DNA of 60,057 nucleotides, counting the filler, from Dugesia japonica (Eukaryota), in assembly GCA_001938525.1 (NCBI GenBank). It is 6 parts of 6 records of this genome, joined end to end, with 100 filler letters (N's around TTAATTAATTAA, not from the genome) between each part and the next. Parts side by side here need not be neighbours in the genome. Positions count along the whole stretch, not along the records: positions 1 to 10,440 come from MQRL01498003.1; positions 10,541 to 21,196 come from MQRL01591091.1; positions 21,297 to 30,312 come from MQRL01641561.1; positions 30,413 to 39,910 come from MQRL01592540.1; positions 40,011 to 49,305 come from MQRL01573251.1; 1 more part is not named here. The stretch is one strand, 5' to 3'. The notes under the pieces were generated by a model. It was given only the letters and a program-made list of their open reading frames with translations. It was not told where the DNA came from and searched no databases. Positions 5,250-48,639 of the stretch are shown one piece after another. Positions within the stretch are counted from its first letter, which is position 1. Every line of letters begins with the position of its first letter. The translations under genes were made by a program, and so were the position numbers.

Positions 5250-5410
5250 ATAAATCAAAAATGTCAATTTCTGATGAAGACAAAGTCAAAAATTCGAAAT
5301 AATATCAACAAAAATAATTTGATCGAATCTTTTATTTTAATGAAATATCAAAAACAATCGATGGTTACGTCCAACAATTATTCTTGAAATGATTGTAATT
5401 GTAAAACAAC
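5250..5410 (+). repeat. Copy of the ~170-bp hammerhead-bearing short repeat (core mutated, GAAA to AAAA)
   Basis: CTGATGA-A-GAC-AAA-GTC-AAAA-ATTC at 5271-5295, followed by the family body (TTTGATCG...ATGGTTACGTCCAACAATTATTC...ATTGTAAAAC). Confidence 0.7.
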
Positions 5411-6764
5411 ACTATTATAATTACTTTCGTAATTAAAATTATTTGAAATTTCTTTAGTTTCTATCTTTAGAGAAATGGTTTTTTAGAATTGGAAAGTTCG
5501 TTGTTTTTCTATGATAATTATTGAAAGTTATTGTATTTAATGTCAACATGTAATTTTCTTAAATAATAATTTTTATTATTCAACCATGATTTTTTCATAG
5601 ATCCCAATTATGATCCTATTTTATTGTGAAAATTTTCAAATTGTAAAAATAATTGAATGCAATCATGAGTATGAATTCTGTTTATCTGATATTATTAGTT
5701 TAATATTCCACAATGTTTGACAGACATTTTTAGATTTCTAAAATTATATTCATTTGCATTTTAAAATTTATTTAAATCTTACTAGTTTTGAAGCGATGTT
5801 TTTGTCAAATTTGTTTTATAAATAGTCAACAGTAGGTGGATAGGGGCACACGGGCACAATTTTTATAAATCACCCCTCTCCTCCGGGGAGGGGGGACTCG
5901 GAAACATATTACGCTTGAGCTGCGTTTTTTTAGACATGATTTTTGAGCTCGTTTTTTTTACAAAGATTTTATGGATAAAAAACATTTTGATCGAATCAGT
6001 TTTTTTGATCTAGAAAGTGTTTGTGTGTATTTTTTAATTTTTAATTTTTTGTGTTTTTGAGTTGTTAAAGTGGTTTTTAAAGAATAGGTCAAGTTGAGTT
6101 TGTGTGTGTGTAAAGGACTAGAAAAAACGAGGAGGAGGAGCTGGAGATCTTGGAGATAATTTTTTTGNTGTTTTGAAGATTTGTTTGTTGTTGGACAAAA
6201 ATTTGGTCTATATATTGTCTTAAAGACATATGAGTTCAGATGGATGGTTTTTGATACTAGGGTAGTGGGACACGGGCACAGTTGTACGAGTTATCGTGGG
6301 TAGTTTTTATGGAGGCTGTAGGTTTGTATGATGTTGATGGAATTTGTTGGTTGATGGTTTGTTGGAGAAGTAATTTGATGGAGAAGATGTTGGTTGTCAT
6401 ATGGGCTTTACTTTTTATTTTAAGGGCTACTATTTGATTTGTTGCTTTTGTAAGTAGTATAAGTGTGTCAAAATATTTTTTCGTGAGGTGCAGGTTGGTA
6501 TGTGTGGAAAGAGAATTAATTATCGGATATTATAAGATTTATTTGAAATTTTTCTATCGGTTGAAATATTTAATTTGGTTAAAAATTCTGTATTTTGCGT
6601 AAATTGATTAATTTAATGAAAGTAATGTTATTTTTGAGTATTTGATGTATTTTTGGTTATTTTTTCGGTATTTCTATCAGTGAAGGGTTGTTTTTTAATA
6701 TTTTTGAACGGAGAAAAGGGGAGTCTGGATATTTTTAAAAACTTTTTGGAAGCAAATTAAAATT

Positions 6765-6860
6765 TTTTTGGCGGAAATTCAAAAAAATAATTTTGGCGAG
6801 AAATTCAAAAAAAATAGTTTTGGCGGGAAATTCAAAAAAATTGTTTTGGTTGGAAATTAT
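6765..6860. promoter_or_regulatory. Tandem E2F + CHR-like (DREAM-type) sites
   Basis: Three to four copies of TTTTGGCGG(G)AAATTCAAA; the reverse complement is TTTGAA-TTTCCCGCCAAAA. Confidence 0.6.
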
Positions 6861-7414
6861 TCATTTCAATGGGGAATCTTAAACTTAATTTAATTTAATT
6901 AAATTTGAATTAAATTAATTTATTTATGTAAGAGATGTGGCAGTCTTAATATTTTGCATGCAGAGTCTATATATTTTGCATAAGATAGGATGAATTGATA
7001 TTTTTTAAGATATTTCTCAAGATATTACAAGATATTGGACAGTCTTGATATTTTTAAAGATATTATGACAAGATATCGCGCAGTTTTGATATTTTTTAAG
7101 ATATTATTACAAGATATTTAATTCTCTTTCAATGGGGAAATATTTTAATTATAATTAAATTAAATTTAATTTAATTAAATTTGAATTAAATTAATTTATT
7201 TATATAAGAAATGTGGCAGTCCTATATTTTGCATAAGATGGGCAGACGTGATATTTCTTAAGATATTTTTAAGATATTACAAGATATTGGACAGTTTTAC
7301 AACTGCAATTATTGCGAGAATAATTGTTGGACATAACCATTGATCGTTTTATAGAATTCATTTAATATAAAAGCTTTGATCAAAATTTAAGTATTATTTA
7401 TTGATATTGGATAA

Positions 7415-7451
7415 CAATTCGATATTTCGACCTTGTCTTCGTCAGGAATTG
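7415..7451 (-). ncRNA. Minimal type I hammerhead ribozyme (Penelope/retrozyme type), intact
   Basis: Minus strand reads CAAUUC-CUGACGA-A-GAC-AAG-GUC-GAAA-UA-UC-GAAUUG: 6-bp stem I, complete core, 3-bp stem II, palindromic AUAU stem III, AUC cleavage triplet. Confidence 0.82.
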
Positions 7452-8478
7452 ACTTTTTTTTGACAGTCTTGATATTTTTAAGATATTATTACAAGATATT
7501 TTTTGAGATAATATTACAAGATATCTTGCAGTCTTGATATTTTTATTCAGTATATGTGTGTTGTAGCTGTAATGCTTTTGAATGCATTTATGAAAATATA
7601 TCTATTAAAAAACTTTAAAGATGAGTGACTTTGTGATAATTACATAATAAAAATATAACTATTAAAAATAACCAAAGAGGGAGTCCTTGTGATATTTGCA
7701 TAATAAAATATAACTTTTATTAAAATATTCATATAAAAAATGTTCAAAGTGGGGAGTTTTTGTGTCATTTATATGAATAAATATTCAAATTAAAACTTTT
7801 CATTACAAAATGATAAAAAACAGAACTTTTTTCAAAACATATTATTATTGGTAATTTTATATAAAAAAAATATATCATTACTGATGCGCTGCAATTTTTA
7901 ATAAAAAAATATTATAGATGTGTTGACAATAATAAAACGTCTGCCCTATATCTTGTAATGATATCTTAAAAATGTCAAGAATACCCATAACATGCGTAAA
8001 TATATTGTAATAACATCTTCAAAAATATCAAGACTGCACGATATCTTGAATTAATATCTTAAAAAATATTAAAAGTGTCCATAACATGCATAAATATCTT
8101 GTAATAATATCTTAAAAATATCAAAACTGCCCGATATCTTGTAATAATATCTTTAAAAATATCAAGTCTGTCCAATATCTTGTAATATCTTAAAAAAATA
8201 TCACGACTGCCCATCTTATGCAAAATATAGGACTGCCACATCTCTTACATAAATAAATTAATTTAATTCAAATTAAATTAAATTAAATTAAATTTAATTA
8301 AATTAAATTAAATTTAATTATAATTAAAAGATTTACCCCATTGAAAGAGAATTAAATATCTTGTGATAATATCTTAAAAAATATCAAGACTGCCCATAAC
8401 ATGCATAAATATCTTGTAATAATATCTTAAAAAATATCAAAACTGCCCAATATCTTGTCATAATATCTTTAAAAATAT

Positions 8479-9900
8479 AGTAGGGGGATAGTGGCGCACT
8501 AGCCCACCTTGATTTTTTAGCCCACTTTCATATTTTGCTGTTATCGGAGGGGATCCCCCTCCCCCTGGGGGGGGGCTCAGAAACACATTACGCTGGGATA
8601 TGTTTTTTTAACTATGATTTTTGTGTTGGTTTTTTTCCAAGATTTTTGGGATCAAAAAATTTTTGATCGGATCGGTTTTTTTTATCCTGGTGGTTTGTGT
8701 GTGTGTACTTTTAAATTTAAAAATTTTTGTGTGTTTGGGTTGTTAAGGTGGTTTTTAAAAAGTAGGTCAAGTTGAGTTTGTGTTTGTGGTTGTGTGTGTG
8801 TAAGTGAAAGAGTGAAAAAAAGGAGGAGGAGAAGTTGGAAATCTTGGAAATAATTTTTTTTTAGTTTTTATGATTTGGTTGATGTTGGACAAAAATATTG
8901 TCTATAAATTGTCTAAAGGACTTATGAGATTGGATGGATGGTTTGTCCTACAACTATGGTGGCGCACTAGCCCACTCGTATGAGTTATTGTGGGTCGTTT
9001 TTAGGAAGGCTGTAGGTTTGAATGTGTTTGTTGGAATTTGTTGGTTAATAGTTTGTTGGAGAGGTATTGTAATGGAAAAGATTTTGTATATCGAATGTGC
9101 TTTGATTTTTTAATTATAGGGCTACTATTTGATTGGTTGATATTTGTAGGTAGTATAAAAGTTTTAAAAAATATTTTGACTGGGAAGGATGGATTTTCAT
9201 ATTTTTCGAACGAAGAAGTAGGGATTCTTGTTATTTTTTAGTGGGAAATTCAAAAAACATTTGGCGAATAATTTAAATTTTTTTTTGGCGGGAAATTTAA
9301 AAAAATCTTTTGGCGGTTAATTCAAAAAAAAATATTTTTGGTGGAAAATTCAAAAATAATATTTTTTAATTTAAAATTTTTCATTTAAACCAGGGAAATC
9401 TTTTTAATATAAATAAATTTAATTAAACTAATTTATTTATGCATGGTATAGGCAGTCTCTATATTTATGCATGTTATGGGCAGTCTCTATATTTATGCAC
9501 GGTATAGGCAGTCTCTATATTTATGCATGGTATGGGCAGTCTTTATATTTATGCATGTTATGGGCAGTTTCTATATTTATGCATGGTACGGACAGTCTCT
9601 GTATTTATGCATGTTATGAGCAGTCTCTATATTTATGCATGGTATGGGCAGTCTCTATATTTATGCATGGTATGGGCAGTCTCTATATTTATGCATGTTA
9701 TGGGCAGTTTCTATATTTATGCATGGTATGGACAGTCTCTATATTTATGCGTGTTATGAGCAGTCTCTATATTTATGCATGGTATGGGCTGTCTCTATAT
9801 TTATGCATGTTATGGCAGTCTTGATATTTTTTAAGATATTATTACAAGAAATTTATGCTATGGGGAGTCTATATATTTATGCATGGTATGGCTAATCTTT
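8479..9900 (+). mobile_element. Second, diverged copy of the same TIR arm, abutting or inserted into the first element
   Basis: Starts AGTAGGGGGATAG. Colinear with 5831-7000 (CATTACGCT, TTGATCGGATC, GGTCAAGTTGAGTTTGTGT, GTTGGACAAAA). E2F-like array at ~9240-9350. Confidence 0.65.
9436..9900. repeat. 28-bp minisatellite (ATTTATGCATG[G/T]TATGGGCAGTCTCTAT), about 14-16 units
   Basis: Directly visible tandem array; related to the GCAGTCTTGATAT subterminal repeats at 6940-7550 and 7930-8478. Confidence 0.92.
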
Positions 9901-10214
9901 ATATATATATGCTCAAAGGTATTTAAAGTATAAGACAATAATTTTTTTTATTAGTTATTTTTTTTTATTAGTCCATTAGTTTTAATTATTATTATTAATT
10001 ATTTTCATGAATGTTTCAGTAGCAGTCTTGTTTTCCTTCCATACCATTACTTTACCTCCTCCAACATGTACAGTCCGACGAAGCAAATCCATCAAGGTCT
10101 TTAGCATCCAATTCGAGTCCGCTCATAATTGAACTTATCGATTAGCTTGCTTAGTTTTAACTAAGCTAAGCTCGATTACAGTATGTGCATCTCCGGTAGC
10201 AGTGTTCCTCACGG

Positions 10215-10730: not shown

Positions 10731-10924
10731 TCCTTCAAAATTATTAATAATTTTAATTGTTGATCAATAATGGGTTCATTTCTTCTACACCTTCTTCATT
10801 GCATGTTCATTTCTTTTTATTATCACCTTTAGATACTTTATCTCTTTTCTTGATTTATTTTCTACTTTAGTGGGTGTTCCACCCCAACAATATAACCAGA
10901 ACAATAATGTAAATTTTGTAAATA

Positions 10925-12120
10925 ATGGAATTCGATTTGGACTTATCAATAAACGTAGCCAGAATTATAATGAATGACCCAGACATTGAATTATTCGGTA
11001 TGAGCAAAGGTCGAGAAGAAATCAAGTAAACCCCAGTAACAAAAAACATAATGCACTACCGTAACATATTTGCAGCACCAGAAAATTTCATAAGTAAAAG
11101 GGTGTGTTACAGCACAATGAAAGTGTTTGATGAGAAGTACAGGGATGAAAATGCAAGAAAGCAATCGTTATTCCAACTACCTAAATATTTATACGGTCTC
11201 ATTGAAGCCCTAGCCAAATCAGGATTTTACTACGTCGGTACCCAAGAACGACCAGATAGAGTAAAATGTATATATTTTCAAGGCATCCTACACAAATGGG
11301 GCATGAATGAGCAACTCAATAAAGCACACAGGAAATGGTTTCCTACCAGTCCATTCTTGCTAAATGTAAATGTAAACAACAAATCCCAACTAACTAAAGG
11401 AAGAAAATCCAAAACCGAGAAAACTACCATGGAACCAAAGCGGATATACTGTAAAATCATAAAGAACTTAGCAGAAGTTGCCCTGCTAGAAGATCTGGAA
11501 TGGAATATCGAAGAAAGAGAAAAAACGTTCAAAGAATCACCAAATCTGAAAGAAAAGCCCTGGATGGATTATACTTTGTCCAACAAACCAGAAATAAAAT
11601 TATCAAATGCACCAATTGCAAACGAGAAACTCTATTACTGCAGGGAATAGAGAAATTACCAAAGAAAATATTTCATCAACCAAATGGTTCAAGATTAACA
11701 CCAATTTACGAGGAAGAAATACAAACCACAGCATGTAGAATCGAGTGGAATATGTCGAGTAACAGAATAGAAATGGCAATTGAATTACAGACTAACCGAC
11801 TGTCTAATATCTTAAAGTTAAATAGGATGAATATCAAACAGTTAATAAACCAAACGGTCACAGAAAAAGGGTCTGAACTAGTCACACCATATGAGTTATA
11901 TCAAAGATCACTCAAATCAGTAAAACCACAGGTAAAATATGAGCGGGAATGGGTGTTGCTAGATCATGATTGCGTTATCTGCCTTTTAGAAACCATCGAG
12001 GTCGTATTTCTGCCATGTGGACATTTTAAAACATGCTATAATTGTGCTATAAACTTAAATGAATGCCCTATGTGTCGAAAGTTAATTGAACGAAGAACAC
12101 TAGGAATAAAATTTCAATAA
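10925..12120 (+). pseudogene. Intronless IAP-like gene, BIR-(degenerate BIR)-RING, with one early stop and one frameshift
   Basis: BIR1: RKQSL..LP.....LAKSGFYYVG....DRVKCIYF..ILHKW.......AHRKWFPTSPF (two Cys lost). BIR2 remnant: REKTF..LDGLYFV..IKCTNC..H. Intact C3HC4 RING: CVICLLETIEVVFLPCGHFKTCYNCAINLNECPMCR. AATAAA at the stop. Confidence 0.88.
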
Positions 12121-15321: not shown

Positions 15322-15382
<61 letters not shown>

Positions 15383-23309: not shown

Positions 23310-26010
23310 AAATTCAAAACTACTCAAATAGTTCCTAACAAGCTGTTCAATCAAAGAGCAAAACACACTTTCCACAAGATCAAAGGTGAGCTCACTGAGT
23401 CTAAATACTTACTTCACAGCAGATATATGAAAGCCCTTTGAAAGTATTTCATGAAATTCTTGGATCTACAATTCCAGTCTCAACACCAACTAAAGAGAAT
23501 ATTATCAATTATTTCACTCAGATTCTGCCAGAAAACCTAAATCTAGATAAGTTTAAATTTCTTGATATTTCACTCTATCAACGAAATAAAATTAAATAAA
23601 ATCAAAACTGCTTTCAAAAGCACTTAGAAATCTTCATCCGGGATGAATAGAGTCACTTACTCCGATTGGCTTAAAATTGATCCCAATAACATATTTCTAC
23701 AGGCTCTCTTTAGCAGAATTCTACAGATTAAATATATACTTGATCAATAGAAAACGTTTTATACTAATCTCATCTTGAAACTGGTTAAAGAAAAGGAATC
23801 TCATCAAGTCTCATCTTGAAAATTTATAGCAATTTTGAATACCTCATACCGAATTTTTACAATTGTTATAAAAAACAGAATTCTCAGTTGGATTTCAGTA
23901 GGAAACTCACTCTCACCAACTCTAAATGTGACTTATTTATCAGATGGATGCTCACAACACAATGCTACAATACAATTAATTAGAGAAAAAGCTGAGCGCG
24001 AGAAATGGAATCTTAACCTTACTTGACTTGATCTGGCAGACACCTTTGATAGTACCCCTCAGAAAATACTCTGATTCATGCTTAAACATATTGGATTACA
24101 TCCTGAGACCGTTACTCTTTTTAAGGAGTTATACAAAGACATTTATTGTTCTTACAAATGTCTAGACATAAAAACAAGCGATATCAAAATCATTAAAGGA
24201 GTCAAACAAGGATGTTCTATGTCTATGACGCTTTTTAGCCTGATCATTGATTTCATTATTATAGTAACCTCAAAAGCATTTCCTCTAACTCTTAATGGGT
24301 ACAATGTTACCATTTTAGTTTATTCAGACGATCTTGAACTTATCTCCAATAATTACAATCAGACGAATCATATGATAAACAAAATTGTAAGCTTCACTGA
24401 TACAAGCCGTCTAAAGTTCATACCAAGCAAATGTGGATTCTTCCAACTTAAAACCCAAATAAAATATCAAAATTTACAATAAAGTGATTCAAAAAATTAA
24501 TGATGAAATTCTATACAATTACTTGGGAGTATCATTAGGAGAAGCTAAGAAAAACAACCTTAAAGACATAATCAACAATGCAATAGAAGACTTTGGAAAA
24601 ATCACAGAAAGCAGTCTTCATCCGTCATTAAAAGTCCAAACATAAAAATGTTTATTCATTCAAGATTAATCTATGCTATGAGGAACCGAGACATTTTCTA
24701 TATGAAACTGAACAACCCTCATCACAAAAAGTTTGATGGCAGTACAAGACAATCAGATTATCAAAAGAATTTTTAAGAACATCAATCAAGCTCCAAACAG
24801 CAGTGACAATAATGCCTTTCCTTTCGTTCTATCTAAACGTGGAGGATTAGATTTGTTGCCTTCAATCGATGAGTACTATATTCAAAGTATAGTAAATGCC
24901 TTCCGGATCCTCAATTCTCAAAAGAATTGTTTCAAAGTGTTAACAGCTAGGGAACTTGAGCACAGATTCAGAAACAATAGCACATATTCGATCCAAAAGA
25001 CCTTGATGCATAACAACACTATTCCATCTTAAGATAAAACTAATATTACTGCATCTTTGTGTACCAGAGTAAGGACGTTAATAAAAAGACTTTACGAAAC
25101 TCATAAACTCAAACTGCTCTTCTTTATTGAAGAAAATGAAATAGAGCTGAAAATCACTTGGCTGGATGATTAGAACTTTTTTCTCAATATACTGATCAAA
25201 AACAGCTCAAAATCTTAGTTGTGCAATGTCCTTCATACTAAAATTGAAATGACATATTTCCAAAAATGGAAAAGCCTTTCCACACAAGGTCTTCTAACAA
25301 CATGTTTAGACTCATCAGACTATGCTCAAAATTTTATGAAAAACTTAAACCTTTCTGAAAACGATTACCCATTCATTATTCGAGTAAGAAACAATCTTTT
25401 GAGAACTAACTACAATCCTAACAAACTGAAAAGCAACATACCAATTCATTGCAAAGAATCTGGTACTGAAGCTATAAACTTAAATACACATATTTAACCA
25501 CTGCTCAGCGAGGAGGAATAAACAGTACAATAAACACAATCATGTTAAGGAAAAGATTGTAGCTCAACTTAGAAAATGGAATTTTGATGTAGAAATTGAT
25601 TCATGTTCACAAAGCTTTGCAAAAGCTAGAGAAGATAATAGGAAAAAATATAAGAGCATCAAATTCGAAATTAGCTCAAAGTTCTACAAAAAGGTTACAC
25701 TTAATAATCTTGTCATTGGAACATTAAACTCAAGGAACGCCTTCAATCAAAGGGCTCTCAAACATATTGGTCTAACCTCAAATGAAATAAAGAAAATCTC
25801 GTAAATATCAATCAAAAGAGTAATCAAAGTGAGCTATCATATTTACTTAAATCATATAATCAATGAGGCTAAATTTCCTTCAATTCAAAACTAAATTCTG
25901 TTTAGACTCAAATGTCCAAGAAATTTATCAAATTGAGTTCTTTCTAAATAACCAAATATAATAAAATAAAAATCTATGATCTCGGATTTATTCGAATCAT
26001 TCAAGACTTA
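23310..26010 (+). mobile_element. Degraded RLE-type non-LTR retrotransposon (NeSL/R5/R4-like), 5'-truncated
   Basis: RT motifs DLADTFDSTP, GVKQGCSMSMTLF, VYSDDL, KFIPSKC, YNYLGV; RGGLDL thumb; C-terminal HCK..E...HI..C..HN zinc remnant; KY and LVIGTL of an RLE domain. Confidence 0.85.
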
Positions 26011-27279: not shown

Positions 27280-27971
27280 TGGTCATGCTTTATTATTATA
27301 TTGTCAAGAAAACGGGAGCAAAACGTACTGATTCACTTGTAGAAATTTATGGTGAATACGCTTTTCCAGCTGCGACATGCAATTTTTTTTGCCGAATTAG
27401 AAATGGCAAATACCAAGGACAAAGAGAATGGAAACCATTAAAACATATTGAAGATAAAATATTTACAATGTTATTGGATAAAGATCTATTTCAAAGACAA
27501 TCTGAATTAGTTACTACAATAAATGCAACCCAATGTTTTTCGTCGCGTCTAAATAGTATGGAATGATTCGAAAATAATGGAATTGAATCACACTTTGATT
27601 AACGTTATAGATAAAGTGAAATGTGAAAAACAATTTATAATGTTTAGAGACCAAAAAGAAACGTTTTTTGCATTGAATTGTTACGGAATATAAAAAAAGA
27701 TATTTAAAGAAAATCCAAAACACAAAGCAACTTAAGTGAAGCCAGGTTAACCCGGTATATCAACGCCAAACCCAAATATCCATGATTCAAAAGTTAAGCT
27801 TTGTATTTGGTGGAAACAGAAAAAGGTCAAATATTATAAACTGCTGAGACCATCGGAGACCATAACTAGTGAATATTATAAATTGCAATTAATTCGACTT
27901 GAAGTGAGCTCTGGCTGACAAAAATACTAGAATGAGAGATTAGACATGCAAGGATAATTTTGCAATATGAT
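27280..27971 (+). mobile_element. Degraded mariner, truncated by a gypsy LTR
   Basis: LVEIYGEYA, FLH*IVT, STPNPNIHDSKVKLCIWW, YKLLRPSETITSEYYKLQL, RHARIILQYD. Confidence 0.82.
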
Positions 27972-30412: not shown

Positions 30413-30765
30413 TCAATCCAATTTCATAAGTCCTTTAGACAATATATAGACCAAATTTTTGTCTAACAACAAACAAATCTTAAAAACTCCAAAAAAAATT
30501 ATTTCCAAGATCTCCAGTTCACACTCGAGTCCAAATTCACTCATTCCACATACAAACTCAACTTGACCTACTTTTTAAAAACCCCCTTAACAACCCAAAC
30601 ACACAAATTTTAAAATTTTAAAATATACACACACAACCACCAAGATCAAAAAAATATGATCCGATCAATAAAATTTTTATCACAAAAATCTTAGAAAAAA
30701 ATCTAACCAAAATATAGTAACACAATTGTAATGTGTTTCCGAGCACCGGGGGGATCCCCTCCAAA
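30413..30765 (-). repeat. Third fragment of the AGTAG-terminal TIR family (inverted)
   Basis: Reverse complement of ~8545-8935 and ~5875-6240 (CAAACTCAACTTGACCTA, TTCCAAGATCTCCAG, GGGGGATCCCCTCC). Confidence 0.8.
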
Positions 30766-31091: not shown

Positions 31092-31109
31092 TCATATTAC
31101 ATATTCTAC

Positions 31110-31700: not shown

Positions 31701-32644
31701 AGTTGCTGGAGTATAAATTAAAATCATCATGCAAGTTGATTAGAAATCACAATGAGAAATTAAAAACCGTAAAAGGAAAAAATGATGTTCGTATGAATAA
31801 ACTTTACAAGACCTAGCGGAGTCCAAGGAGCAAGAAGCTCTTAAAATACGATGTGAAGAGCTAAAAANNNNNNNNNNNNNNNNNNNNNNNNNNNNNNNNN
31901 NNNNNNNNNNNNNNNNNNNNNNNNNNNNNNNNNNNNNNNNNNNNNNNNNNNNNNNNNNNNNNNNNNNNNNNNNNNNNNNNNNNNNNNNNNNNNNNNNNTA
32001 GCAATTTTTACGCAGAATTCACAAAATACACTCGACTTTCTTCCAAAAAATAGAAACAGTAACTAAAATTTTTATTTAATTAAATAAAATAATTAATAAA
32101 ATTAATAAAATTGACTTGATAAATATGAAATAATTATATATAATTTCAGTAAATCAAAAAGTTTCGATCAAAGAGTTTTTTAAAATTTATTGAAACTTTA
32201 AAATTCATTAGTTAAGTCTAACGATTATACCAGCAATAATTGTAATAGTAAAATTATACATCGATATAATATTTATTTATAAGTTTTCTTATTGGTTTTT
32301 GGTACAACGTCGATAGTTATATAAAGAGAAAAATTATGACTATCGTTTTAAAGTGTAACGGAAATTTGGTTAGTAATTAAAAATTTTCCAAAATAATATA
32401 AATAAATTCAACACAGTTGTTTTGATGGTCTTTTGAAATATAGCTTGTAAGAAATACTCAACTTTCAGTATACTATAATTTGAAAACATATTTTTAATTT
32501 TCTAAATTACAAAATACTTTTGTATGTATAAAAATATCAAATAAATAATAATTATCACAAATATATTTATAAGTGATAAGCATAATAATTGAAAAATTTG
32601 TTTATATAATTTGTTTAACTTCATTTTTTCAAATTCAACTANAA

Positions 32645-34291
32645 ATGTCAAAAGGCGTACTCTATTCTCCAGTTGGATTCTATAAATCTCAACGTATCCA
32701 AATAATTGCAAAATATGCTGGAAAAGATTTAGAGTTATCTGAAAAACCTGTTCCGGAAAATTTGATTGTTCCGAAAGATGCTATTCCAGTTTATAGTGAA
32801 GGAGATTTAACTCTCTTTGAAACAAATGCTATTGGGTTCTATTTAGGAAATGAACAATTGAGAGGTAACATAATTAATGACTTTTAGACCATTTAAAATT
32901 TCAATTAGGAAACAATGACAAAGCATCAGTATCTCAATGGTGCAACTATGCTGATTTAGTTCTATTACCAGCTGTCGGTACCTTAGTCTTTCCATGTTTG
33001 GGATTAATGCAGTTGAATAAAAGTGAAAGTGATAAGGCCAGAGTTTTAATTCTTAATGAATTAAAATTCTTGAATGATGTTCTTTTGAAGAAAACATTTT
33101 TAGTTGGAGAAAGAATTTCACAAGCTGATATAACAGTATTTAGCGTGTTGAAGATGCTATACGAAATGATTCTTGATGAGCAAACAAGACGAGCATTTGT
33201 CAATGTTAATAGATGGTTTTTGACAGTCGCGAATCAAGAACATGTTAAAAATGTTGTCGGCGAAATTAAATTGTGTGTAACTCCTGCTGTTTTTGATGCT
33301 AAAAAATATGCTGAATTACATCCCAAGAAAGAAGTTAAAGATGATAAAAAACCAAAGGAAAAGAAACCACAAGAGAAAAAACAAGAGAAACCAAAAAAAG
33401 AAGAAGAAGAAATTGAAGAAGATGTCCCAGCTGTTAAAGAAGGACCATGTCCATATAGTTTGTTACCAAAAGGAACATTTGATATGGACGAGTGGAAAAG
33501 AACATACTCGAATAATGATATAGTAACTGTTGCATTACCATATTTTTGGAGTAAATTTGACTCTGAAAATTATTCTATTTGGACCTGNNNNNNNNNNNNN
33601 NNNNNNNNNNNNNNNNNNNNNNNNNNNNNNNNNNNNNAAATTGTGTGTAACTCCTGCTGTTTTTGATGCTAAAAAATATGCTGAATTACATCCCAAGAAA
33701 GAAGTTAAAGATGATAAAAAACCAAAGGAAAAGAAACCACAAGAGAAAAAACAAGAGAAACCAAAAAAAGAAGAAGAANNNNNNNNNNNNNNNNNNNNNN
33801 NNNNNNNNNNNNNNNNNNNNNNNNNNNNNNNNNNNNNNNNNNNNNNNNNNNNNNNNNNNNNNNNNNNNNNNNNNNNNNNNNNNNNNNNNNNNNNNNNNNN
33901 NNNNNNNNNNNNNNNNNNNNNNNNNNNNNNNNNNNNNNNNNNNNNNNNNNNNNNNNNNNNNNNNNNNNNNNNNAAAGAATTAGAATTGATTTTCATGACA
34001 TGCAATTTAGTTTCTGGTATGTTTCAAAGATTGGATAGATTGAGAAAACATGCTTTTGGAAGTATGGTCATTATTGGTGAAAACCGTAACAACCAAATTA
34101 AAGGTTTGTGGATCTTAAAAGGACAAGAATTAGCATTTACCTTACATGATGATTGTAAGGTTGATTATGAATCATATAAATGGCAAAAACTTGATCCTAA
34201 TGCATCTGAAACTAAAGATTTAGTCAAGTCTTACTTCACGCATGAAGGAGACTTTGGAATGCCATTCAATCAAGGAAAAATTTTTAAATAA
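32645..34291 (+). CDS. EEF1G: Elongation factor 1-gamma (eEF1B-gamma); intron 32865-32908; gaps and a duplicated segment in the 3' half
   Basis: MSKGVLYS... GST-N/GST-C domain (LFETNAIGFY, KTFLVGERISQAD, NVNRWFLT), lysine-rich linker, FDMDEWKRTYSN, FMTCNLVSGMFQRLD, FNQGKIFK*. The 44-bp GT-AG intron restores the frame. Confidence 0.97.
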
Positions 34292-35498: not shown

Positions 35499-35955
35499 CT
35501 AATTCCAAATTCGAAGGAAACTGTCCCAAGATCCGGTGCACACTGCCATTCCATCTTCCGAAACTCCGAGACAGCTGACTCGGTTATCGTGACCAGCTAA
35601 AACTCCTGAAATAATAATATTGATTTTAAGATATTTTCCCTTCCAAAAATCGTGGTATTTATTTACCGGCTCTATCTTGTTTCAGTGTGTCCCATACGTT
35701 ACAGTTGAAATCGTCATAACCACCGAGTAATAATCGGCCACTTTTGCTGAAAGCAACACTTGTAATACCACAAATAATGTTGTCGTGAGAAAACATTCCT
35801 ATTTCTTGATCAGCTCTTATATCAAACAATCGACAGGTAGCATCGTCAGAACCTGTTGCGAATGCCTGACCATTGGGGAAAAACGTTATTGCGTTTATAT
35901 CCGATTCATGACCCGGAAACGTTTGCTTACACTGACCATCTCGTAAGTCCCAAAG
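35499..35955 (-). CDS. GNB: Heterotrimeric G-protein beta subunit, last two exons (35955-35667 and 35605-35499); missed by the ORF track
   Basis: [51 protein letters not shown]...[14 protein letters not shown]|[35 protein letters not shown]; 61-bp GT-AG intron. Confidence 0.97.
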
Positions 35956-36021
35956 CTTTACAATAAAAAAATTTTAATTTTTCATTTATACTAGTCGATT
36001 TTTGTAATAGTATGATTTTTC

Positions 36022-37245
36022 GGAAAAATTAATGTTAGAAAAACGTTGGATCATCTTTTTTTTTGACAAAGTTGTTCAAATTAAAAACACGATAGAAAAT
36101 CTTATAAAGAATCTTATATAAGAAAAAATTATAATAGAATTTTAAATTAAAAACACACCCTTCATTCCGACAATTTTAATTTTGTTAAAATAGTATTTTG
36201 TATTTGAGATTAAAATTTAAAAATGTTCTCTTCTTAAAGCTTTTTAAAACATAACGTTTTACATCATAAAAAAATTAATTTCGGAAATTTGTTAAATTAG
36301 TTTTTTTTATTTTGTTCTATTTAAAAATATGTAAAATTAATGTTATAAAAACGTTTAAAATAAAAATGAAACTCTAAGATTAATTGGATCATCTTCTTTG
36401 ACTAAGTTGTTCAAATTAAAAACACGATAGAAAATCTATAAATTTATTTTAAATTAAAAACACTCACTTTAACCGATAATTTTAATTTTGTTAAAATAGT
36501 ATTTTTTATCTGAGATTAAAATTTAAAAATGTTTTCTTCTTAGAGCTTTTTAGAACATAACGTTTTACATCATAAAATAATTAATTTCGGAAATTTGTTA
36601 AAATAGTTTTTTTTATTTTGTTCTATTTAAAAATATGTAAAATTAATGTTATAAAAACGTTTAAAAAATGAAACTCTAAGATTAATTGGATCATCTTCTT
36701 TGACTAAGTTGTTCAAATTAAAAACACGATAGAAAATCTATAAATTTATTTTAAATTAAAAACACTCACTTCAATCGATAATTTTAATTTTGTTAAAATA
36801 TTATTTTTTAATTGAGATTAAAATTTAAAAATGTTTTCTTCTTAGAGCTTTTTAAAACATAACGTTTTACATCATAAAAAAATTAATTTCGGAAATTTGT
36901 TAAAATAGTTTTTTTTATTTTGTTCTATTTAAAAATATGTAAAATTAATGTTAGAAAAACGTTTAAAATAAAAATGAAACTCTAAGATTAATTGGATCAT
37001 CTTCTTTGACTAAGTTGTTCAAATTAAAAACACGATAGAAAATCTATAAATTTATTTTAAATTAAAAACACTCACTTCAATCGATGATTTTAATTTTGTT
37101 AAAATAGTATTTTTTATCTGAGATTAATATTTTAAAATGTTCTCTTAAAGATTTTTAAAACATAACGTTTTACATTATATAAAAAATTAATTTTCGGAAA
37201 TTCGTTCAATTTGTTAAAATAGTCTTTATTTTGTTCTATTTAATC
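36022..37245. repeat. Tandem repeat, ~302-306 bp x4, in the G-beta intron
   Basis: GTAAAATTAATGTTA recurs at 36331, 36637 and 36939; units are near-identical. Confidence 0.92.
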
Positions 37246-37669
37246 ACATGATAAAAATAATTGTTCAAATTATACAGACGACCCTAAAATTGTTCAAAAA
37301 AGATGATATGATTAATTTCCTAAAAACAAAATGAAAGTTTAAATGTTATATCGTCCAATTCGATTTTAAATATAGAAAATTATTTCATTAAATTAAAAGC
37401 TTCAATNNNNNNNNNNNNNNNNNNNNNNNNNNNNNNNNNNNNNNNNNNNNNNNNNNNNNNNNNNNNNNNNNNNNNNNNNNNNNNNNNNNNNNNNNNNNNN
37501 NNNNNNNNNNNNNNNNNNNNNNNNNNNNNNNNNNNAAAAAAGCAACATTTTGATCAGAGGTTTTAATTTTATGAAATCTCAAATTCGATCCAACAAACTT
37601 TTCTCGTAATAATTGTAAAATACAGAATTATAACTAAATTTGTTACGAAAATTTTAAAACGTTGTAGTC

Positions 37670-37880: not shown

Positions 37881-39910
37881 TTACGAATTTAAATAAATAC
37901 ACTNNNNNNNNNNNNNNNNNNNNNNNNNNNNNNNNNNNNNNNNNNNNNNNNNNNNNNNNNNNNNNNNNNNNNNNNNNNNNNNNNNNNNNNNNNNNNNNNN
38001 NNNNNCAATCCGAATTAAAGACAATATTCTTCAGGCATTTACTTGTACATTTAATTATTATTTAATAGCATTGAATTAGAATAAGTGTAAAAAGAAAATA
38101 ACGTACAGTAACTCAACCAAAATCATACACCTGTTATAAATTCATATTTATTTACTATGCATTTAAACTGTTGCAGTGCTCTATATATTTTTAATTTTTG
38201 TAAACTGATTTCTGCAAAACAGAAAACTGCAAGTGTAGCCAATTGTATTTGACAGACAAGAACCACAAATGGTCCTTTCACAAGAAAAATTGATTAACTC
38301 CACTTTTCGAATTTAAGAGTCAAAGAACTTGATGGAATCCTTGCTTTTGATATTCAGTTTAAATTTTCCTAATTTACGTTTTTAATACCATTAAATAACA
38401 AAGTATTTTGATTATTGAATAAAAAGTAATTTGAAAAGTTTAATGAGTACTATTTTATCAAATTTTCCCACTTTTTAGTTTTATGGAGTTAGTCGATTTG
38501 ACTTGTAAACAGCTTAAATATTTAAATCAAGTGTACAAAATAAGATTTCGTGGATAAAGAACAAGAATACGAATAGAAAAACATAAAAAAAATCATAGCA
38601 GCCTACAAAAAATGTTTCGTTTTTCAATTTACATAATAAGCTTTATTCAATGATAATCTAAATAGTAAGGATGAATACAGTAATTTAAACAAAACCTATC
38701 TTCATAAATGTATAGTAGTAAAGTTTTACATCGTAGTTTTTCAAGATGGAGCAATAAAAAATAAATTTTTTTATTTATTTGTTAATAGTTCAAGCTTTTT
38801 TTACAAATCAATGAAAAGCTTTTTTTGTTTACAATTATTGTTGAAAATGCACTTTCACTCATTTAAATTTCAAAACTCAATAAAAGAAATTTCTTATAAT
38901 ATTATAAAACATTCATTTAAAATAAAAGCTTCGATCAAAAACAAAAAAAAATTTAATCGAAGTTTTTATTTTAAATGAATTCTGAAAAACGATCAATGGT
39001 CACGTCCAAAATTTATTCTCCCAATAATTGTAAAATATAAAACATCTTAAAACAATTTTAAAACATTTTTTGGAAATATAAAATAAAGGCTAAATTAGCG
39101 TTTTTTTTCGAGCGGAACCGTGAAACGTATTTTTTCGGAACATATTTTTTTTCTTTTATTTTTTACTGAGAAACACTGGTTTACATAACAAAATTATATG
39201 ATTATCATAATTATTACAAATCTAAGAAAGTCGCTATATTCCTTTACATAGGAACTGATAGTTTTCTGGAGTATTCGAGATGTGGGAATTTCATTTTTAA
39301 ATTAATTTCAATTGCAAGAATCACAATATTTCTGGAATCAAAGCTTATATTAAATAATGTCTATCTAAATTTCAGATTATTAAAAAATTTGTTAAATTTA
39401 TAATCAGTTTGAGACAAAATATTAAAAATTATTATAATATACTAAAATTATTATTATTAAATACTATGTTGTATTAAATAATGCTATTTTAATGACTTTA
39501 ATATCAAACAATTCGTCATTAACCAATCTTATTGAAAAATCTAAATTCAAAAAATGCCAATAATTTCATTGAAAAATAAATGAGTCATCTAAAATTTCAT
39601 TTGATTAATCGATTTGTAGAATCGTTCACTATTATTAGTCATAAACACTCATGCTCAAATCGCTTGTTTTTCTTTAATTACTCTGATGACAGGTAAATTA
39701 GAAAAAAAATTTATTTTTATTATTAAAAATTATTTTAATGCAAAACACATTCAATAATATTATTTGAAAATATGCAATTTATATTTTTTAAAAGAAATTT
39801 ATTTAATCAATATTGTAAATTGTTCAACTGCAAAATAATTTTGTCAAAAAATAATCGTTTATAGGCTTCATCGGTTAATGAAGTCATACGATGAGAAAAA
39901 AGGGTCAAAA

Positions 39911-40010: not shown

Positions 40011-40576
40011 CAGTTAATAATTGATAAACATTTGAGAGACCTTCAGTTTAGTTTAAAGAGTTTTTTGATATTTAATTTAAATAAAAAATGTATAATTGAG
40101 ATTGTGAGGAAATTTGTGAATATTTTAAGTATTTTATGTGTGTGTAAATTAATTAATTTTTATTTTTATTGAGTGATTACGATTTTTGTTTTAATATTGA
40201 TACTGTGTCAGTTTTAAAAACGTACCGTAAAATTTTGTTGGGAATTTATTTTGAAAATCATTGCAATNNNNNNNNNNNNNNNNNNNNNNNNNNNNNNNNN
40301 NNNNNNNNNNNNNNNNNNNNNNNNNNNNNNNNNNNNNNNNNNNNNNNNNNNNNNNNNNNNNNNNNNNNNNNNNNTAAATTTATCTATTTTGTAAATATTA
40401 ATAAATTTTAGTAATCAAACCATTTCAGATTTTCTTATTATTTTATAAGTATGAATGAAGTGTTAAGTGGTAAATTTGAATCCGCTAACAGAGATAAACC
40501 AATCAAATTATAATAAAATAAAAGAATTTTGTAGCAAAGATCTATCATCCAATTGAATCCATCAGGAAGTCATCAT

Positions 40577-40612
40577 ATTCCTGAAGAAGACAAATGTATC
40601 GAAAATTTGAAT
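40577..40612 (+). ncRNA. Minimal hammerhead ribozyme (stem II mismatch)
   Basis: AUUC-CUGAAGA-A-GACA-AAUG-UAUC-GAAA-AU-UU-GAAU. Confidence 0.6.
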
Positions 40613-41128
40613 TTCTTTAAAAATACATTTTATTTTTATCGCAGCTTTCTCTTTATTTTAATGAAACATCTCAAATGCGATCAATGGTTAATTGTCCAAC
40701 AATTATTCTCACAATAATCGTAATTATAACACTAGTAATGTAATAGCTATAATAATGTTAAAATGCTTTCATTTTAGTGGAAGGGCTGCAACCCTGCAGC
40801 CCTTATGGGCGAGTTACCCGACTCCTAGTTATAGATGTAATGTATTTCTTTTAAAATTAGAGAACCAACATCGACAGTTTTTGTATTTCTGTTGATAATA
40901 GTAAATAGATATTCTACTGTGTAGACGACAATCGCATTTCTACTTGTTCTGGATTTAATAATAGCGAAAAACTAAAAGCAAAAAAATAAAATGGCACAAT
41001 TTGATCAAATTTTTGAGTTACAATGTGAGATTTATTTTAATTGAGTTAAACCAATCAAATTATGATAAAATACAAGAATTTTGTAGCAAAAGTCTATCAT
41101 CCAATTGAATCCATCAGAAAGTCATCAT

Positions 41129-41164
41129 ATTCCTGAAGAAGACAAATGTGTCGAAAATTTGAAT
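41129..41164 (+). ncRNA. Minimal hammerhead ribozyme
   Basis: AUUC-CUGAAGA-A-GACA-AAUG-UGUC-GAAA-AU-UU-GAAU; 4-bp stems I and II, palindromic AAUU stem III. Confidence 0.72.
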
Positions 41165-41556
41165 TTCTTTAAAAATATTTTACAATTGCAATTATTGCNN
41201 NNNNNNNNNNNNNNNNNNNNNNNNNNNNNNNNNNNNNNNNNNNNNNNNNNNNNNNNNNNNNNNNNNNNNNNNNNNNNNNNACTAGTAATGTAATAGCTAT
41301 AATAATAATTTTAAAATGCTTTCATTTTAGTGGGAGGGCTGCAGTTACAATGTGAGATTTATTTTAATTATGACAAGTTAAGAATGTAGGCAAATTAATA
41401 GAAAAAACCTACCAGTTGCACAAGTAAAATGAGAATAAATGATCTTTTCCGGATCGGGATTTAAATCAACAAACATTTTTAAAATGAAATCTCTAGCTGC
41501 TTCAGCATCTCTTTGAGGTCCTTAGAAAAACACGTAAAGTTGTAATATAAATTTCA

Positions 41557-41721
<165 letters not shown>

Positions 41722-42059
41722 CTATAATAAAAGAAATGCAAACAATAAAAATTATAAATGCAACAAATTATATCAGAAGAAATTTATAAGTTTTTAATGA
41801 AGACTTTATTACAGTATTATTAAAAGATATATAGAAATTATTAATAAATATATAATTAATCAAACAATATTGGCAATTTTTAAAAANNNNNNNNNNNNNN
41901 NNNNNNNNNNNNNNNNNNNNNNNNNNNNNNNNNNNNNNNNNNNNNNNNNNNNNNNNNNNNNNNNNNNNNNNNNNNNNNNNNNNNNNNNNNNNNNNNNNNN
42001 NNNNNNNNNNNNNNNNNNNAATTAATTAAAAACATTCAATATAAACCTAGAAAGACCTG

Positions 42060-42900
42060 TTTGACTAATATTCTTTTTGGATTAATTGATCTAATCCTCA
42101 ATGTTTCACGAAAACTTCTCCTAATAATATCTCAAGTTTTTACAAAAATTTTTAAAATTATTTATACTGATTACTGACTTACATTTAATATTATGTTCAG
42201 CAATATTACTTCCACTATCCACTCAATGCTCCTGAATTCTTCTAGAGATGACAGGAAGTCTCTCCAATTTATGTGGCATTAAACCCATTACATTCATAAT
42301 ATTAAACCGGATCAGAACACAATTGTTATGGTGTTTTAGAGTTATTACTAAACATAACCCAGATAAAATAGATAGGTATAGTTATGTATTAACTATTTCG
42401 TATTTTGAAGGATTTCAACAAATTTAAAATAGGTTGTTAAAATATATAAACGACTGTTTCAATTTTAAAGTTGTTTCTCAGTTTTATAAAATCATAAATA
42501 TGTTTAGTAATAAGTCTAAAACACCAATTCAATTGTGTTCNGATCTTGTTTATAAATGAATGTAATGCCACATATATTGGAGACTTCTCGTNATTACTTT
42601 ACAAGAATTCAGGATTATTGACAGGTTGGTGGTGGAAGTAATATTGCCGAACATAATATTAATCGTAAATCAGTTATCAGTATAAATAATTTGTAAATTT
42701 TGTGCTGAAATGCTAGATATTATTGAGAGAGAATTGAACGTGAAACATTGATGATTAGATAAAAATTGATGCAAAAAGTTATGTTCAAACAAGTTTTTCC
42801 AGAACTGATTACATAATCAGAATTTTTAATATATATAAATGTTAAATGGATTAAATATTATATTTGAAGATTACAGATGCACTGTCGAAACATGTAATAA
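42060..42900 (+). mobile_element. Penelope-like element 3' remnant: GIY-YIG endonuclease plus degraded hammerhead (~42861-42899)
   Basis: LVYK..ECNATYIGD.SR..TRI...SNIAEH; then (T)TGAAGA-TT-ACAG-ATGCA-CTGTC-GAAA-CATG-TA. Confidence 0.7.
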
Positions 42901-43967
42901 AAAATATCTTGAAATGGCGTTTAAAACTTTTTAAATATATATAAATTTTTCGATTTTTTGATTCCTCTTGAAATAAATGTCAAATTGTTCTGAACACATT
43001 CAGATACCTTGACCATATAGAAAGTTAAAAGGTTTGGGGTCCGCCCTGACATTCTAAGGATATAAGACAGTTAACACCTAGCAATTTTTTAAGGTGAATC
43101 GGTCTCTTCCAACATCTGTTTAATAAGCCCATTTACTACATGATTCGACAATTCGACTGTATAGATATAACAAAATTGGAATTAATATAATTTAAGGCTT
43201 AAAAAATTATATTCTATATATTTATTGGTGATTTCTATACATAGATGTTAATAATACCGTAACAGATCATAAGTTATATAGGAATATAAAACTAGAAAAC
43301 TTAAAAGAAGATTAATAATATATTTCTTTGATTGTATAGGAATTTCGTAAACAAATAAATAATTCAAAGATTTTAAATACTGTTTAACAACATTAAACAT
43401 AACTCTAATAAAAACTCTAATAAAACCAATAATATTAAAAGTAAAAAGGAATGAAAACAATATTTATAAATTACCATTGATATAAAGTGCGAAAGAATTT
43501 ATGAATTCCTTAATAATGGAAATAAATTTTAATATTTAAAATTCAAAGAAAAACTAAATTGAAAAACTGAAGTTCTTATCAGTATGCGTTATTTATTTTG
43601 AAAGAAGAATAAGGTACTTTTACAAAAAAAATTAAGTTAATGCTAACATTAATATAACAATTTAACGGTATCTCTTCAATTAAATTCGAAAAAAAGATTA
43701 CTAACCTTAGATAATAAATACAAGTAAATCCTTTTGAAAGTTAGGATCAATATATTTTTAACAATGTTAAATACCTAGATTTAAAAACAAAGTGACTTAT
43801 ATCACTTTAAAAATAAATAGTTCACAAGTTGTCGTAATGATTGTTGCAGTCATGTTGAATAAGATAGCAAACAACTATTTCAGGGCAATCAATCAAACAA
43901 AAATAATCAAAATTTTAAAACCACCGATCAAAAGTGGATGGCAGAATGTTTTTTTCTTCTTTGTTAG

Positions 43968-43999
43968 TTATCCAAATTTTCGACGATTGTCTTCTTCAG
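43968..43999 (-). ncRNA. Hammerhead core lacking the 5' strand of stem I
   Basis: CUGAAGA-A-GAC-AAUC-GUC-GAAA-AU-UU-GGAUAAC; upstream sequence is not complementary. Confidence 0.5.
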
Positions 44000-44019
44000 T
44001 TTTCTTTATTTAAATACCA

Positions 44020-46200: not shown

Positions 46201-47364
46201 AAAACATGCTTTCAAAATGTATCATAGCGTGGTATTTAAATTGAAATTAAATATTATAAAAGTAATAAGTGGATAGATATTCGCAACAAATGAAGAGATA
46301 TTATTGATTATTAAGCCATATAGAAAACTCGAACTAATTGGTAGTAGTTTGATACAAACTAATATATACAATTTCACAGAGAAAACCAATGTCCAATAAT
46401 AGGATTTACAGAAAACAAAATCATTAAATTAAAAAACGTTATTGGACACATTAGAATTATGTTGAATACATTAAATCTTTGACAGAATCAATTGCCGATA
46501 ACATCTAGCAAATTCCATCATACGTTTTCAAATTTTTGTTTAGTTTACAATTTAAGTATCATTTTTTTGTGAAATTAAAGAAAATTCATTTTAAATGAAA
46601 TGATTGACCCATTTCAGCCCAGAAATGATGAAATTCAAATAAAAAACATTGCTTAATTTTACCTAGCAAAATTTTGAAATTAATTTTTACAACATAAAAT
46701 ATAGTTACTTATTGGAAATCATTTTAGAGTATCGATTTCTGCATATTATAACAATTTGAATTAAAATTATAATTGAGATTTAATACAAATTTAAATTTAG
46801 AATAAATAATCAATAAATATGGGGAAGATTCCAATTGTTTACTAGTAATTGTTTTTCAACGAGGATATTTTTCTATTTTGCAAAATATTTAAATTATTCA
46901 ATCTTTATAAGTGATTTTTTATAAAGACTGAATGACAAATCAGAGTAATTCGAGATGATTTTAAATATATCTTAAAAATAAAATGCATAGAAATTTTGAT
47001 CGATTTATTGTCAGAAATTGAATTTGTACTAAATTTTACAATATAAAAAATATAAATAAAATACCAGCTAAAATGGTGTTCGGTAAAATGTGATAACAAG
47101 AATTGAGAGATAAATACTAGTGTAAACGTGAAAGTCAACAATTAAACAATAAGGAAAATTAATATTGGGGATTTATTTCAATTAAAAAAAGATGTACGAA
47201 ATAAAGATGAGAGGTATTATGACTTAGAAATATAATCAAACACAAGATCTTAAAAAAGAAAATGAGTTGTGTAAATTTAGACATGTCAAGTTATACCATT
47301 ACAATTATTGCGAAAATAATTGTTGGACGTAACTATTGATCGAATTTGAGATTTCATTAAAATT

Positions 47365-48060
47365 GAAGAAGCTATCGAAAAACATTTTGAGAATAATATT
47401 ATCCGGAAATGCAACTCTTCATGGAATACTCTATTGATTTGTGCTTGGGAAATGGAAAAGAAAGAATATGTTTTGATTTTAGAATGCAGTAACAAAAAGA
47501 CAAGTTTTTCCGATGCAAAAATTGATGAAATGCTGGACCAATTGAATGGAGCAAAATATTTCAGTTCAATAGATTTGGGAAATGCGTAGTATCAGGTAGA
47601 GCTCGAAGAGGAATCTCAAGAAAAATGAGGTTTTCAAAGAAGCACGGACAATATTGTTTTAATGGAATACCTTTTGGAATCGCAGCGGCACTGAGAACAT
47701 TTCAGGAGATGATGACAAAAGTGATAGGCAGAATTAAAGGAGCTATGGTATATCTAGATGATATTATGATAATNNNNNNNNNNNNNNNNNNNNNNNNNNN
47801 NNNNNNNNNNNNNNNNNNNNNNNNNNNNNNNNNNNNNNNNNNNNNNNNNNNNNNNNNNNNNNNNNNNNNNNNNNNNNNNNNNNNNNNNNNNNNNTTGGAA
47901 CTGATCCGTCTAAAATAGAAGCAATAAGAACTTTTGGAAAACCCAACTGCGTAAAGAAGTTACGAAGTTTCTTAGGAATTTATAATTACTACAGGAAATT
48001 TAAAGAAAATGATGCAAGTAAATCCAAGATCTTAGAACAGCTGTGTAGCGGACCAAGCAA
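47365..48060 (+). mobile_element. Ty3/gypsy reverse transcriptase fragment
   Basis: IIRKCNSSWN, IDEMLDQLNGAKYFSSIDL, IPFGIAAA..TFQ, VYLDDI, LRSFLGIYNYYRKF. Confidence 0.9.
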
Positions 48061-48099
48061 CAAAAGTTAGAAATATTTATTATTTTATAGTCAAAGCAA

Positions 48100-48285
48100 C
48101 CTTTATGAGTATTTAGAGTTGAAAGATCGGTATTTTGGGGAGAGACATTGCTTAGATTCCGAAACTGCGTCTTGAAGTTCACAATAACGATGGAGGATAT
48201 CTGATTCAATAATTATTTAAGTTTTTGTTGTTGTGTTAAAAAAAATTTATTGAAAAAGCACCCTTAATTATGTTACAACCTAATA
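48100..48285 (+). mobile_element. Mariner 3' end with TIR
   Basis: ...NNDGGYLIQ* C-terminus, then TTATGTTACAACCTAA-TA. Confidence 0.6.
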
Positions 48286-48639
48286 TTACTGGAATAATTT
48301 ACAATAAAATATAAATTTAAAGTTAAATAAAATTATCCAAGAAAATTTGGATAAAATACAAATAATTTTGTAAAAAGTTTCTAATATTGGTTAAATCAAA
48401 CAAAAAGTTATATTCCTGAAGAAAACAATAGTAAAAAATTCAAAATAATAAAAAAAACAAAATTTTGATCGAAGCTTATATATTTTAATGAAACTTTAAA
48501 TTAGGTAAAAAAATTCCTGTTACATCATTGATAATATTATAATGCAATTACAAAATTTTAATGTAATCAAAAGATTTTGGCAAAAGATTTTTTTTAACTG
48601 GCNNNNNNNNNNNNNNNNNNNNNNNNNNNNNNNNNNNNN

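Follow-up and report, generated by a model that had tools for sequence, protein, structure and literature searches.

What is the short repeat, marked by a hammerhead-like ribozyme string, that recurs throughout a 60,057-nucleotide stretch of Dugesia japonica DNA (assembly GCA_001938525.1; parts of six records joined end to end, together termed the window)? It had originally been predicted to be a very abundant non-autonomous element of ~170 bp, either a retrozyme or a Penelope-derived short interspersed nuclear element (SINE). Our analysis shows a dispersed family of ~170-250 bp. It is likely, though far from certain, that this repeat is the pseudo-long terminal repeat (pLTR), at the 3' end, of an endonuclease-bearing Penelope-like retroelement (PLE), left behind as solo truncated copies. 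A PLE derivation of some kind, taking this reading and a non-autonomous rival together, is highly probable. What stands of the original prediction is a very abundant, retroposed repeat that carries a minimal hammerhead of the Penelope type; neither a retrozyme nor a tRNA-type SINE is supported.

Copies were identified by BLAST and an iterated nucleotide hidden Markov model (HMM) over the 57,683 non-N bases of the window. The HMM detects 11 copies, corresponding to one per ~5.2 kb and ~2.2% of these bases, and none in the reversed window at E<=0.1. All nine intervals predicted earlier belong to this single family, and the HMM adds two more. Pairwise identities range from 60 to 97% (median 0.71, 44 pairs), the largest copy is at most about 250 bp, and there are four short inverted pieces (37381-37406, 38911-38940, 40062-40089 and 41178-41198). 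The copies and fragments are:

5248-5407, plus strand: near-full copy with G12 lost and a weak stem I
7296-7461, minus strand: best-preserved copy, 166 bp, inside a 41-bp satellite unit (HMM; empty sister unit at 7024-7060)
26999-27069, plus strand: 5'-truncated copy without the ribozyme region, newly added (HMM)
32145-32253, plus strand: 5'-truncated copy without the ribozyme region, newly added (HMM)
37381-37620, plus strand: inverted piece at 37381-37406 (minus), followed after an N gap by an upright copy at 37536-37620 that is 5'-truncated
38913-39035, plus strand: head-to-head insertion, inverted to ~38940, then an upright 5'-truncated copy
40062-40089, minus strand: short fragment, weak match (E 5e-5, one query only)
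40491-40732, plus strand: copy with a ~90-nt 5' extension, core kept, stem II broken
40491-41042, plus strand: first unit of a local tandem duplication
41043-41198, plus strand: second duplication unit, with 5' extension, complete motif, inverted 3'-end piece and N gap
43912-43999, minus strand: copy beginning at CUGA, with an intact core and stem II but lacking the 5' strand of stem I and the 3' part
47290-47384, minus strand: 5'-truncated copy without the ribozyme region (HMM)
48337-48502, plus strand: copy with a ~80-nt 5' extension, ribozyme decayed, 3' part lost

The predicted abundance is borne out by public data. Mapping onto 7270-7480 at 80% likeness placed 21,299 contigs of one public set (X1) and 27,597 of another (X4), with peak summed depths of 2.5 and 3.6 million, while most long single-locus contigs have depths of 5-13. 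Summed contig depth is not a copy number; taken together with the window density of one copy per 5.2 kb, contig depth suggests roughly 100,000 copies in the genome. The best-matching public run contains 44% of the sampled words, and the runs may thus represent another strain. We found no account of such a family in the planarian and Schmidtea hammerhead literature; Repbase or supplementary repeat lists could contain it.

The hammerhead region is included in six of the 11 copies (motif positions follow hammerhead numbering). Its layout is type I, with a stem I of 4-6 bp, an extra A, a stem II of 3-4 bp and a four-base palindrome replacing stem III. The PLE-type traits are well represented: the extra A between positions 9 and 10.1 and the stem III palindrome are found in all six copies (AUAU in one, AAUU in five), and the G10.1-C11.1 pair in four. 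The loop II variants AAG, AAUG and AAUC were all recovered as predicted. The exact string CUGAnGA-A-GAC..GUC-GAAA occurs in three copies (7425-7445 minus, 41133-41156 plus and 43978-43999 minus) and in none of 100 shuffles. A Rfam scan gave no hammerhead match at E<=1 and only three unrelated weak matches. A motif descriptor that requires both stem I and stem II as well as a stem III palindrome detects the complete minimal type I fold in two copies and in none of 200 shuffles:

7415-7451, minus strand: predicted complete minimal type I motif (descriptor match), with stem I of 6 bp, CUGACGA, extra A, stem II of 3 bp, loop AAG, GAAA, AUAU and C17; predicted cut between 7421 and 7420 on the minus strand
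41129-41164, plus strand: predicted complete motif (descriptor match), with stem I of 4 bp, stem II of 4 bp, loop AAUG, AAUU and U17

Thus, the family and its motif are real, yet nine of the 11 window copies are unable to form the ribozyme, because G12 (5248 and 48394 copies), stem II (40555 copy) or the 5' strand of stem I (43912 copy) has been lost, or because the region is absent. The earlier claim that the core is retained holds for the three named copies with the exact motif but is overstated, since the ribozyme region is missing from three of the nine (37536, 38940 and 47297).

Mapped reads add a view of the wider family. The exchange between AUAU and AAUU preserves the palindrome; in RNA run X22 the change is present in 60 of 504 and 70 of 514 reads at the two positions, seen separately. 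With the copy at 41106 as a second reference, the 26 core and stem positions (41133-41143 and 41149-41163) have no listed variant of at least 8%, and in loop II three positions are substituted and five deletion entries are listed. For the 7296 reference, the changes listed include N7, loop II, C17 to A and both palindrome positions, as well as C11.1 to U in 14-18% of the DNA depth and G12 to A in 3%. Core conservation across mapped reads is suggestive only, because mapping favours reads that match the core of the reference. In a model without tertiary terms, the lowest-energy predicted dimer fold is not the active dimer (-6.2 and -2.0 kcal/mol for the active form versus -22.2 and -14.9 kcal/mol for the minimum-free-energy dimers), and whole copies fold no better than shuffles (z -0.52). 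A 5'-leader hairpin that would mask the core was dropped as a candidate, the key G being A in ~80% of the contig depth at 41117.

A common 3' end is reached, fully or nearly so, by eight of the 11 copies, and the 5' ends are staggered, lying anywhere from ~90 nt upstream to ~70 nt downstream of the core. An extension of 80-90 nt upstream of the core is shared by three copies at two independent loci: the extension at 48337 is homologous to that at 40491/41043 (0 of 1000 shuffles reach the score), and it is also found at other loci, in loose ends of contigs and reads. Homology further upstream than -90 is insignificant (151 of 1000 shuffles reach the score), and the 5248 copy is without the long extension (951 of 1000). 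A 33-residue frame lies in the 5' extension (40455-40553). Towards the other end, there is an ATG 90-105 nt past the core, followed by up to 15 open codons that extend to the 3' end and are possibly the first codons of a parent open reading frame (ORF). The same region forms an AU-rich 3'-terminal hairpin of nine pairs, in which no double change was seen.

Clear target-site duplications (TSDs) of 6 and 10 bp flank two of the eight copies tested. The first surrounds the 7296-7461 copy, which interrupts a satellite unit and is flanked on both sides by GACAGT; a sister unit 250 bp away is empty. In DNA contigs both edges of this copy are sharp and the flanks unrelated (at 7295, 410 and 445 loose ends with an agreement of 0.46). 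The second surrounds the insertion at 38913-39035, which consists of an inverted and an upright piece arranged head-to-head. Strand changes also occur in contigs, where seven of the 15 joints listed (of 34) are strand-changing, five of them at the 5' end at 7456-7460 and in both contig sets. The features at these ends are:

7290-7295, plus strand: left copy of the 6-bp TSD, GACAGT
7462-7467, plus strand: right copy of the 6-bp TSD
7296-7340, minus strand: ATG followed by 15 open codons as far as the 3' end, overlapping the 9-bp AU-rich terminal hairpin
38903-38912, plus strand: left copy of the 10-bp TSD, TATAAAACAT (shared words of at least 10 bp occur in 0.7% of null window pairs)
39036-39045, plus strand: right copy of the 10-bp TSD

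A fixed 3' end with 5' truncation, a head-to-head inverted copy and short TSDs of variable length are features of PLE pLTRs, and all of them were observed. Thus, pLTR stubs are the most likely origin of the copies, with an enzyme and a parent element that we infer. A Penelope reverse transcriptase (RT) with a GIY-YIG endonuclease, provided by a putative partner PLE, would copy the element RNA into nicked DNA, and copying would usually halt within ~250 nt, leaving pLTR stubs behind. The ribozyme would cut only as a dimer, its two palindromes pairing with each other, because stem III (one pair over a 2-nt loop), judging from the literature, could not close in the monomer. Dimer cutting would take place in partial-tandem source elements, in which two pLTRs lie within one transcript, and the solo copies would be inert, decaying and, in RNA, merely passengers of other transcripts. 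Since published minimal hammerheads have no activity as monomers and low activity as dimers in the accessible text of PMC4209133, any cutting should be weak and confined to tandem source elements. For Xenopus, the accessible text of bioRxiv 10.64898/2026.07.22.740005 gives one of nine dimers as cutting in vitro.

Complete elements carrying the motif string were found in metagenomes. The general motif matched 32 metagenome loci, eight of which have an adjoining stem I of at least 4 bp (4-5 bp); the other 24 are probably mostly chance matches. Two loci, L006 and L011, consist of RT elements with two ORFs, arranged head-to-tail in units of 5.2 kb, and in L006, L012 and L018 the motif lies in sense orientation 119-122 nt before ORF1. 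The L006/L011 RT gives weak RVT_1 matches, and among the 120 listed relatives of the L011 RT, 22 carry the GIY-YIG domain PF01541, which is the PLE architecture. Elements L006, L011 and L018 resemble the window family in the motif string, the palindrome and a position ~120 nt before an ORF start, but differ in their GC content of 44-48% and in being full tandem elements. A family-specific 23-nt pattern had no match in metagenome or viral contigs, and the general motif had none in viral contigs. In their own right, L006 (1-7028), L011 (1-5758), L018, L002 and L012 are exact head-to-tail, possibly circular 5.2-kb PLE-type RT elements with an RG-rich ORF1 and a minimal hammerhead; no GIY-YIG domain was detected in them, and their RT has 3,071 relatives at E<=1e-20.

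Several observations weigh against the pLTR reading. Its main gap is that no PLE ORF lies within the 60 kb: none of 154 window frames has a GIY-YIG or PLE-type match, a profile built from 62 PLE-type RTs of one branch reaches a best E of 0.33 in the window, and tblastn with 120 PLE-type RTs gives nothing at E<=0.05. Moreover, six of the eight copies tested have no clear duplication, and visual inspection of the 15-codon frame reveals no coding constraint, its ATG being present in four of the seven copies checked. Stem covariation among the six window motifs does not exceed that of shuffles (478 of 500 reach the score), and the core conservation in mapped reads is partly built in. Finally, the eight stem I-bearing metagenome loci amount to ~4 independent families, and the metagenome elements have no homology to the window family beyond the motif. 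Separately, the antisense of the 3' half, which we took to resemble a PLE RT motif, was rejected by profile scores: eight copies score -3.0 to 0.9, within the range of 399 shuffles (maximum 4.2), with one copy above the 95th percentile of the shuffles.

The 5' boundary bears on the leading rival, a short non-autonomous master that shares the PLE origin. Here, self-standing pLTR-derived masters of ~170-250 nt, a "Penelope SINE", would be transcribed alone and borrow the PLE enzyme in trans, which we consider possible but rather unlikely. All 11 copies are at most 250 bp long, the 7296 copy is a TSD-flanked insertion beginning 16 nt before the core, and opposite-strand joints recur at its 5' point. 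In addition, the X1 summed depth falls from ~60,000 at the core to ~1,100 some 40-50 nt upstream. However, the upstream loose ends share a consensus (agreement 0.6-0.8), and divergence from the reference therefore explains part of the fall; moreover, upstream of 41043 the reference consists of a duplication junction, which cannot reveal a longer parent. The 80-90-nt extension at two of the five independent ribozyme-bearing loci also argues against short masters, as does the lack of an element-specific RNA start in mapped RNA. According to the accessible texts, a pLTR in cis is all that mobilisation in trans requires (PMC3846280), and PLEs that form pLTRs and are putatively non-autonomous have been reported (PMC8557442). 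The non-autonomous element of the original prediction is thus possible, but the staggered 5' ends and the shared extension fit a truncated longer element at least equally well. A more specific form, a ~200-nt Penelope "SINE" of ~100,000 copies whose several diverged masters all keep the core and the stem III palindrome while loop II drifts, appears doubtful.

On the 7270-7480 reference, 2,204 of 13.6 million RNA reads map in run X22 (0.016%) and 64 of 10.5 million in run X21; on the 41106 reference these are 266 of 13.2 million in run X23 and seven in run X21. The reads lie on both strands, and 86-100% of them (94% in X22) continue into unlike sequence. No RNA start, end or cleavage pile-up is listed, and none of the joints shown has support from an RNA read. 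The signal looks like read-through in host transcripts. The libraries are oligo-dT and cDNA libraries, which likely miss small circles, and the absence of a circle signal is therefore not decisive.

The low, two-stranded RNA signal speaks against the copies being monomeric offspring of a non-LTR retrozyme, whose tandem sources would self-cleave, circularise and be reverse-transcribed into new sites. We regard this alternative as improbable. The monomer share among retrozyme families, which are pLTR-derived, ranges from 0 to 1 (bioRxiv 10.64898/2026.07.22.740005, accessible text), a few head-to-tail joints are present in contigs, and a local tandem holds two cores 552 nt apart. The head-to-tail joints among those listed have single-locus depth only and unequal spacers of 9-25 nt, however, and stem II is broken in the first core of the local tandem. 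Copy ends do not coincide with the predicted cut site, and the window has no tandem array of the unit, although short-read contigs could hide rare arrays. Moreover, the coral retrozymes with demonstrated circles have canonical rather than minimal motifs in the accessible text of PMC7229834. What is present instead are dispersed monomers, and the retrozyme half of the original prediction was not upheld. The local tandem duplication itself (40491-41369) is 94% alike; within it, near 40782-40803, a GC-rich hairpin with CTAG directly behind it resembles a Helitron end.

The flanks and internal sequence of the copies also bear on a PLE-unrelated repeat, such as a SINE driven by a long interspersed nuclear element (LINE), a miniature inverted-repeat transposable element (MITE) or a Helitron-type fragment, that happens to carry a hammerhead-like string. 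The window has LINE, mariner and gypsy remnants and no PLE remnant, the copies have a terminal hairpin, and three of the 11 carry a loose B-box-like 9-mer on the sense strand. Against this stand the PLE-type traits of the motif and the lack of terminal inverted repeats by eye in the copy alignment. MITEs and Helitrons are not expected to have TSDs of unequal length, as found here. Judged by the box consensus, the copies contain no tRNA, sense-strand A box or strict B box, and a tRNA-type SINE is thus not supported. An origin unrelated to PLEs is thus very improbable.

The pLTR reading agrees with what the accessible texts report for related systems. Minimal hammerheads of metazoan PLEs have a nucleotide between 9 and 10.1, G10.1-C11.1, a palindromic stem III and mostly single copies (PMC4209133). 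The window family is alike in its type I layout, the extra nucleotide before stem II, the G10.1-C11.1 pair, the palindromic 2-nt stem III insert, the short stem I, the prevalence of single copies and the high sequence variability. It differs in its stem II of 3-4 bp, compared to 6-8 bp in Schistosoma and Drosophila virilis, and in that its parent ORF was not found within the 60 kb. Its abundance is probably far above the 2,000-9,000 motifs given there, which are descriptor counts of intact motifs (PMC4209133). In Adineta vaga, pLTRs measure 193-218 bp, contain the first 12 ORF codons, have TSDs of 8-10 bp and are mostly head-to-head, and solo copies occur (PMC3846280). The window family shares the size of ~200 bp, TSDs of up to 10 bp, head-to-head inversions, solo copies and, putatively, ORF-start codons at the 3' end. 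However, A. vaga has low copy numbers and known full elements, whereas the window has a copy about every 5 kb and contains no full element. Non-LTR retrozymes are likewise small, low-GC, non-coding, equipped with a type I hammerhead and of likely pLTR origin, but tandem units and abundant circular RNA are what defines them, and neither was seen in the window copies or RNA (PMC7229834; bioRxiv 10.64898/2026.07.22.740005). Thus, apart from ORF linkage and stem covariation, the family shows the testable features of PLE pLTRs and minimal hammerheads, and it lacks the tandem arrangement of retrozymes and the RNA polymerase III signals of tRNA SINEs.

The remainder of the window is AT-rich (18-40% GC per 2 kb), has many gaps and is dense in transposon remnants. 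Polinton/Maverick-like remnants (53824-55470, minus) comprise an integrase core, a phospholipase A2-like and a double-jelly-roll stretch, all below Pfam cut-offs. Two decayed stretches (2686-2899 and 26257-26470) are 67% alike and have no database match; we take them to resemble fragments of protein-primed DNA polymerase B. Mariner, LINE-type RT and gypsy-type RT/RNase H remnants lie at 2393-2575, 27751-27915, 24075-24479, 29394-29744 and 47529-47771. BIR and RING domains in two overlapping frames (11030-12117, plus) indicate a frameshifted or spliced inhibitor of apoptosis (IAP)-like gene with no obvious intron. EF1-gamma (32881-34291, plus) points to an animal; its best match has 62% identity, and matches to molluscs, corals and flatworms have about 53%. 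Within this gene, 141 bp occur twice without a difference (33268-33408 and 33638-33778), set between N gaps, which is probably an artefact of assembly. A split set of G-protein beta WD40 frames (two pieces, 35502-35973, minus) and a G-alpha exon (41557-41721, minus) are also present, and several repeat copies near these G-protein frames may be intronic. Finally, there is a 750-bp imperfect palindrome at 42047-42802 (71% self-complementary), and satellites at 6879-9908 and 36046-37261 consist of 41/53/93-bp and 28-bp units in an inverted complex that includes a repeat with another occurrence at 30413-30747, together with a 306-bp tandem repeat.

That Penelope pLTRs carry minimal hammerheads, mostly as single truncated copies, has been known since 2014 (PMC4209133, accessible text). 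The arrangement is thus known and ordinary, and it is the abundance here that is unusual. The family, which makes up ~2% of the window, matters for the annotation of this genome, and its many variants provide a large natural collection of minimal-hammerhead mutations. What hammerheads do in PLEs is still termed unclear in the accessible text of PMC8557442. If the source element were found, the very high copy number and the 10 public studies that contain the stretch or part of it would make a convenient test bed. Should short non-autonomous masters prove to be the source, mobilisation would require the ribozyme in cis, with cutting by trans-dimers that monomeric RNAs form with each other, and the role of PLE hammerheads would become testable in a much-sequenced animal.

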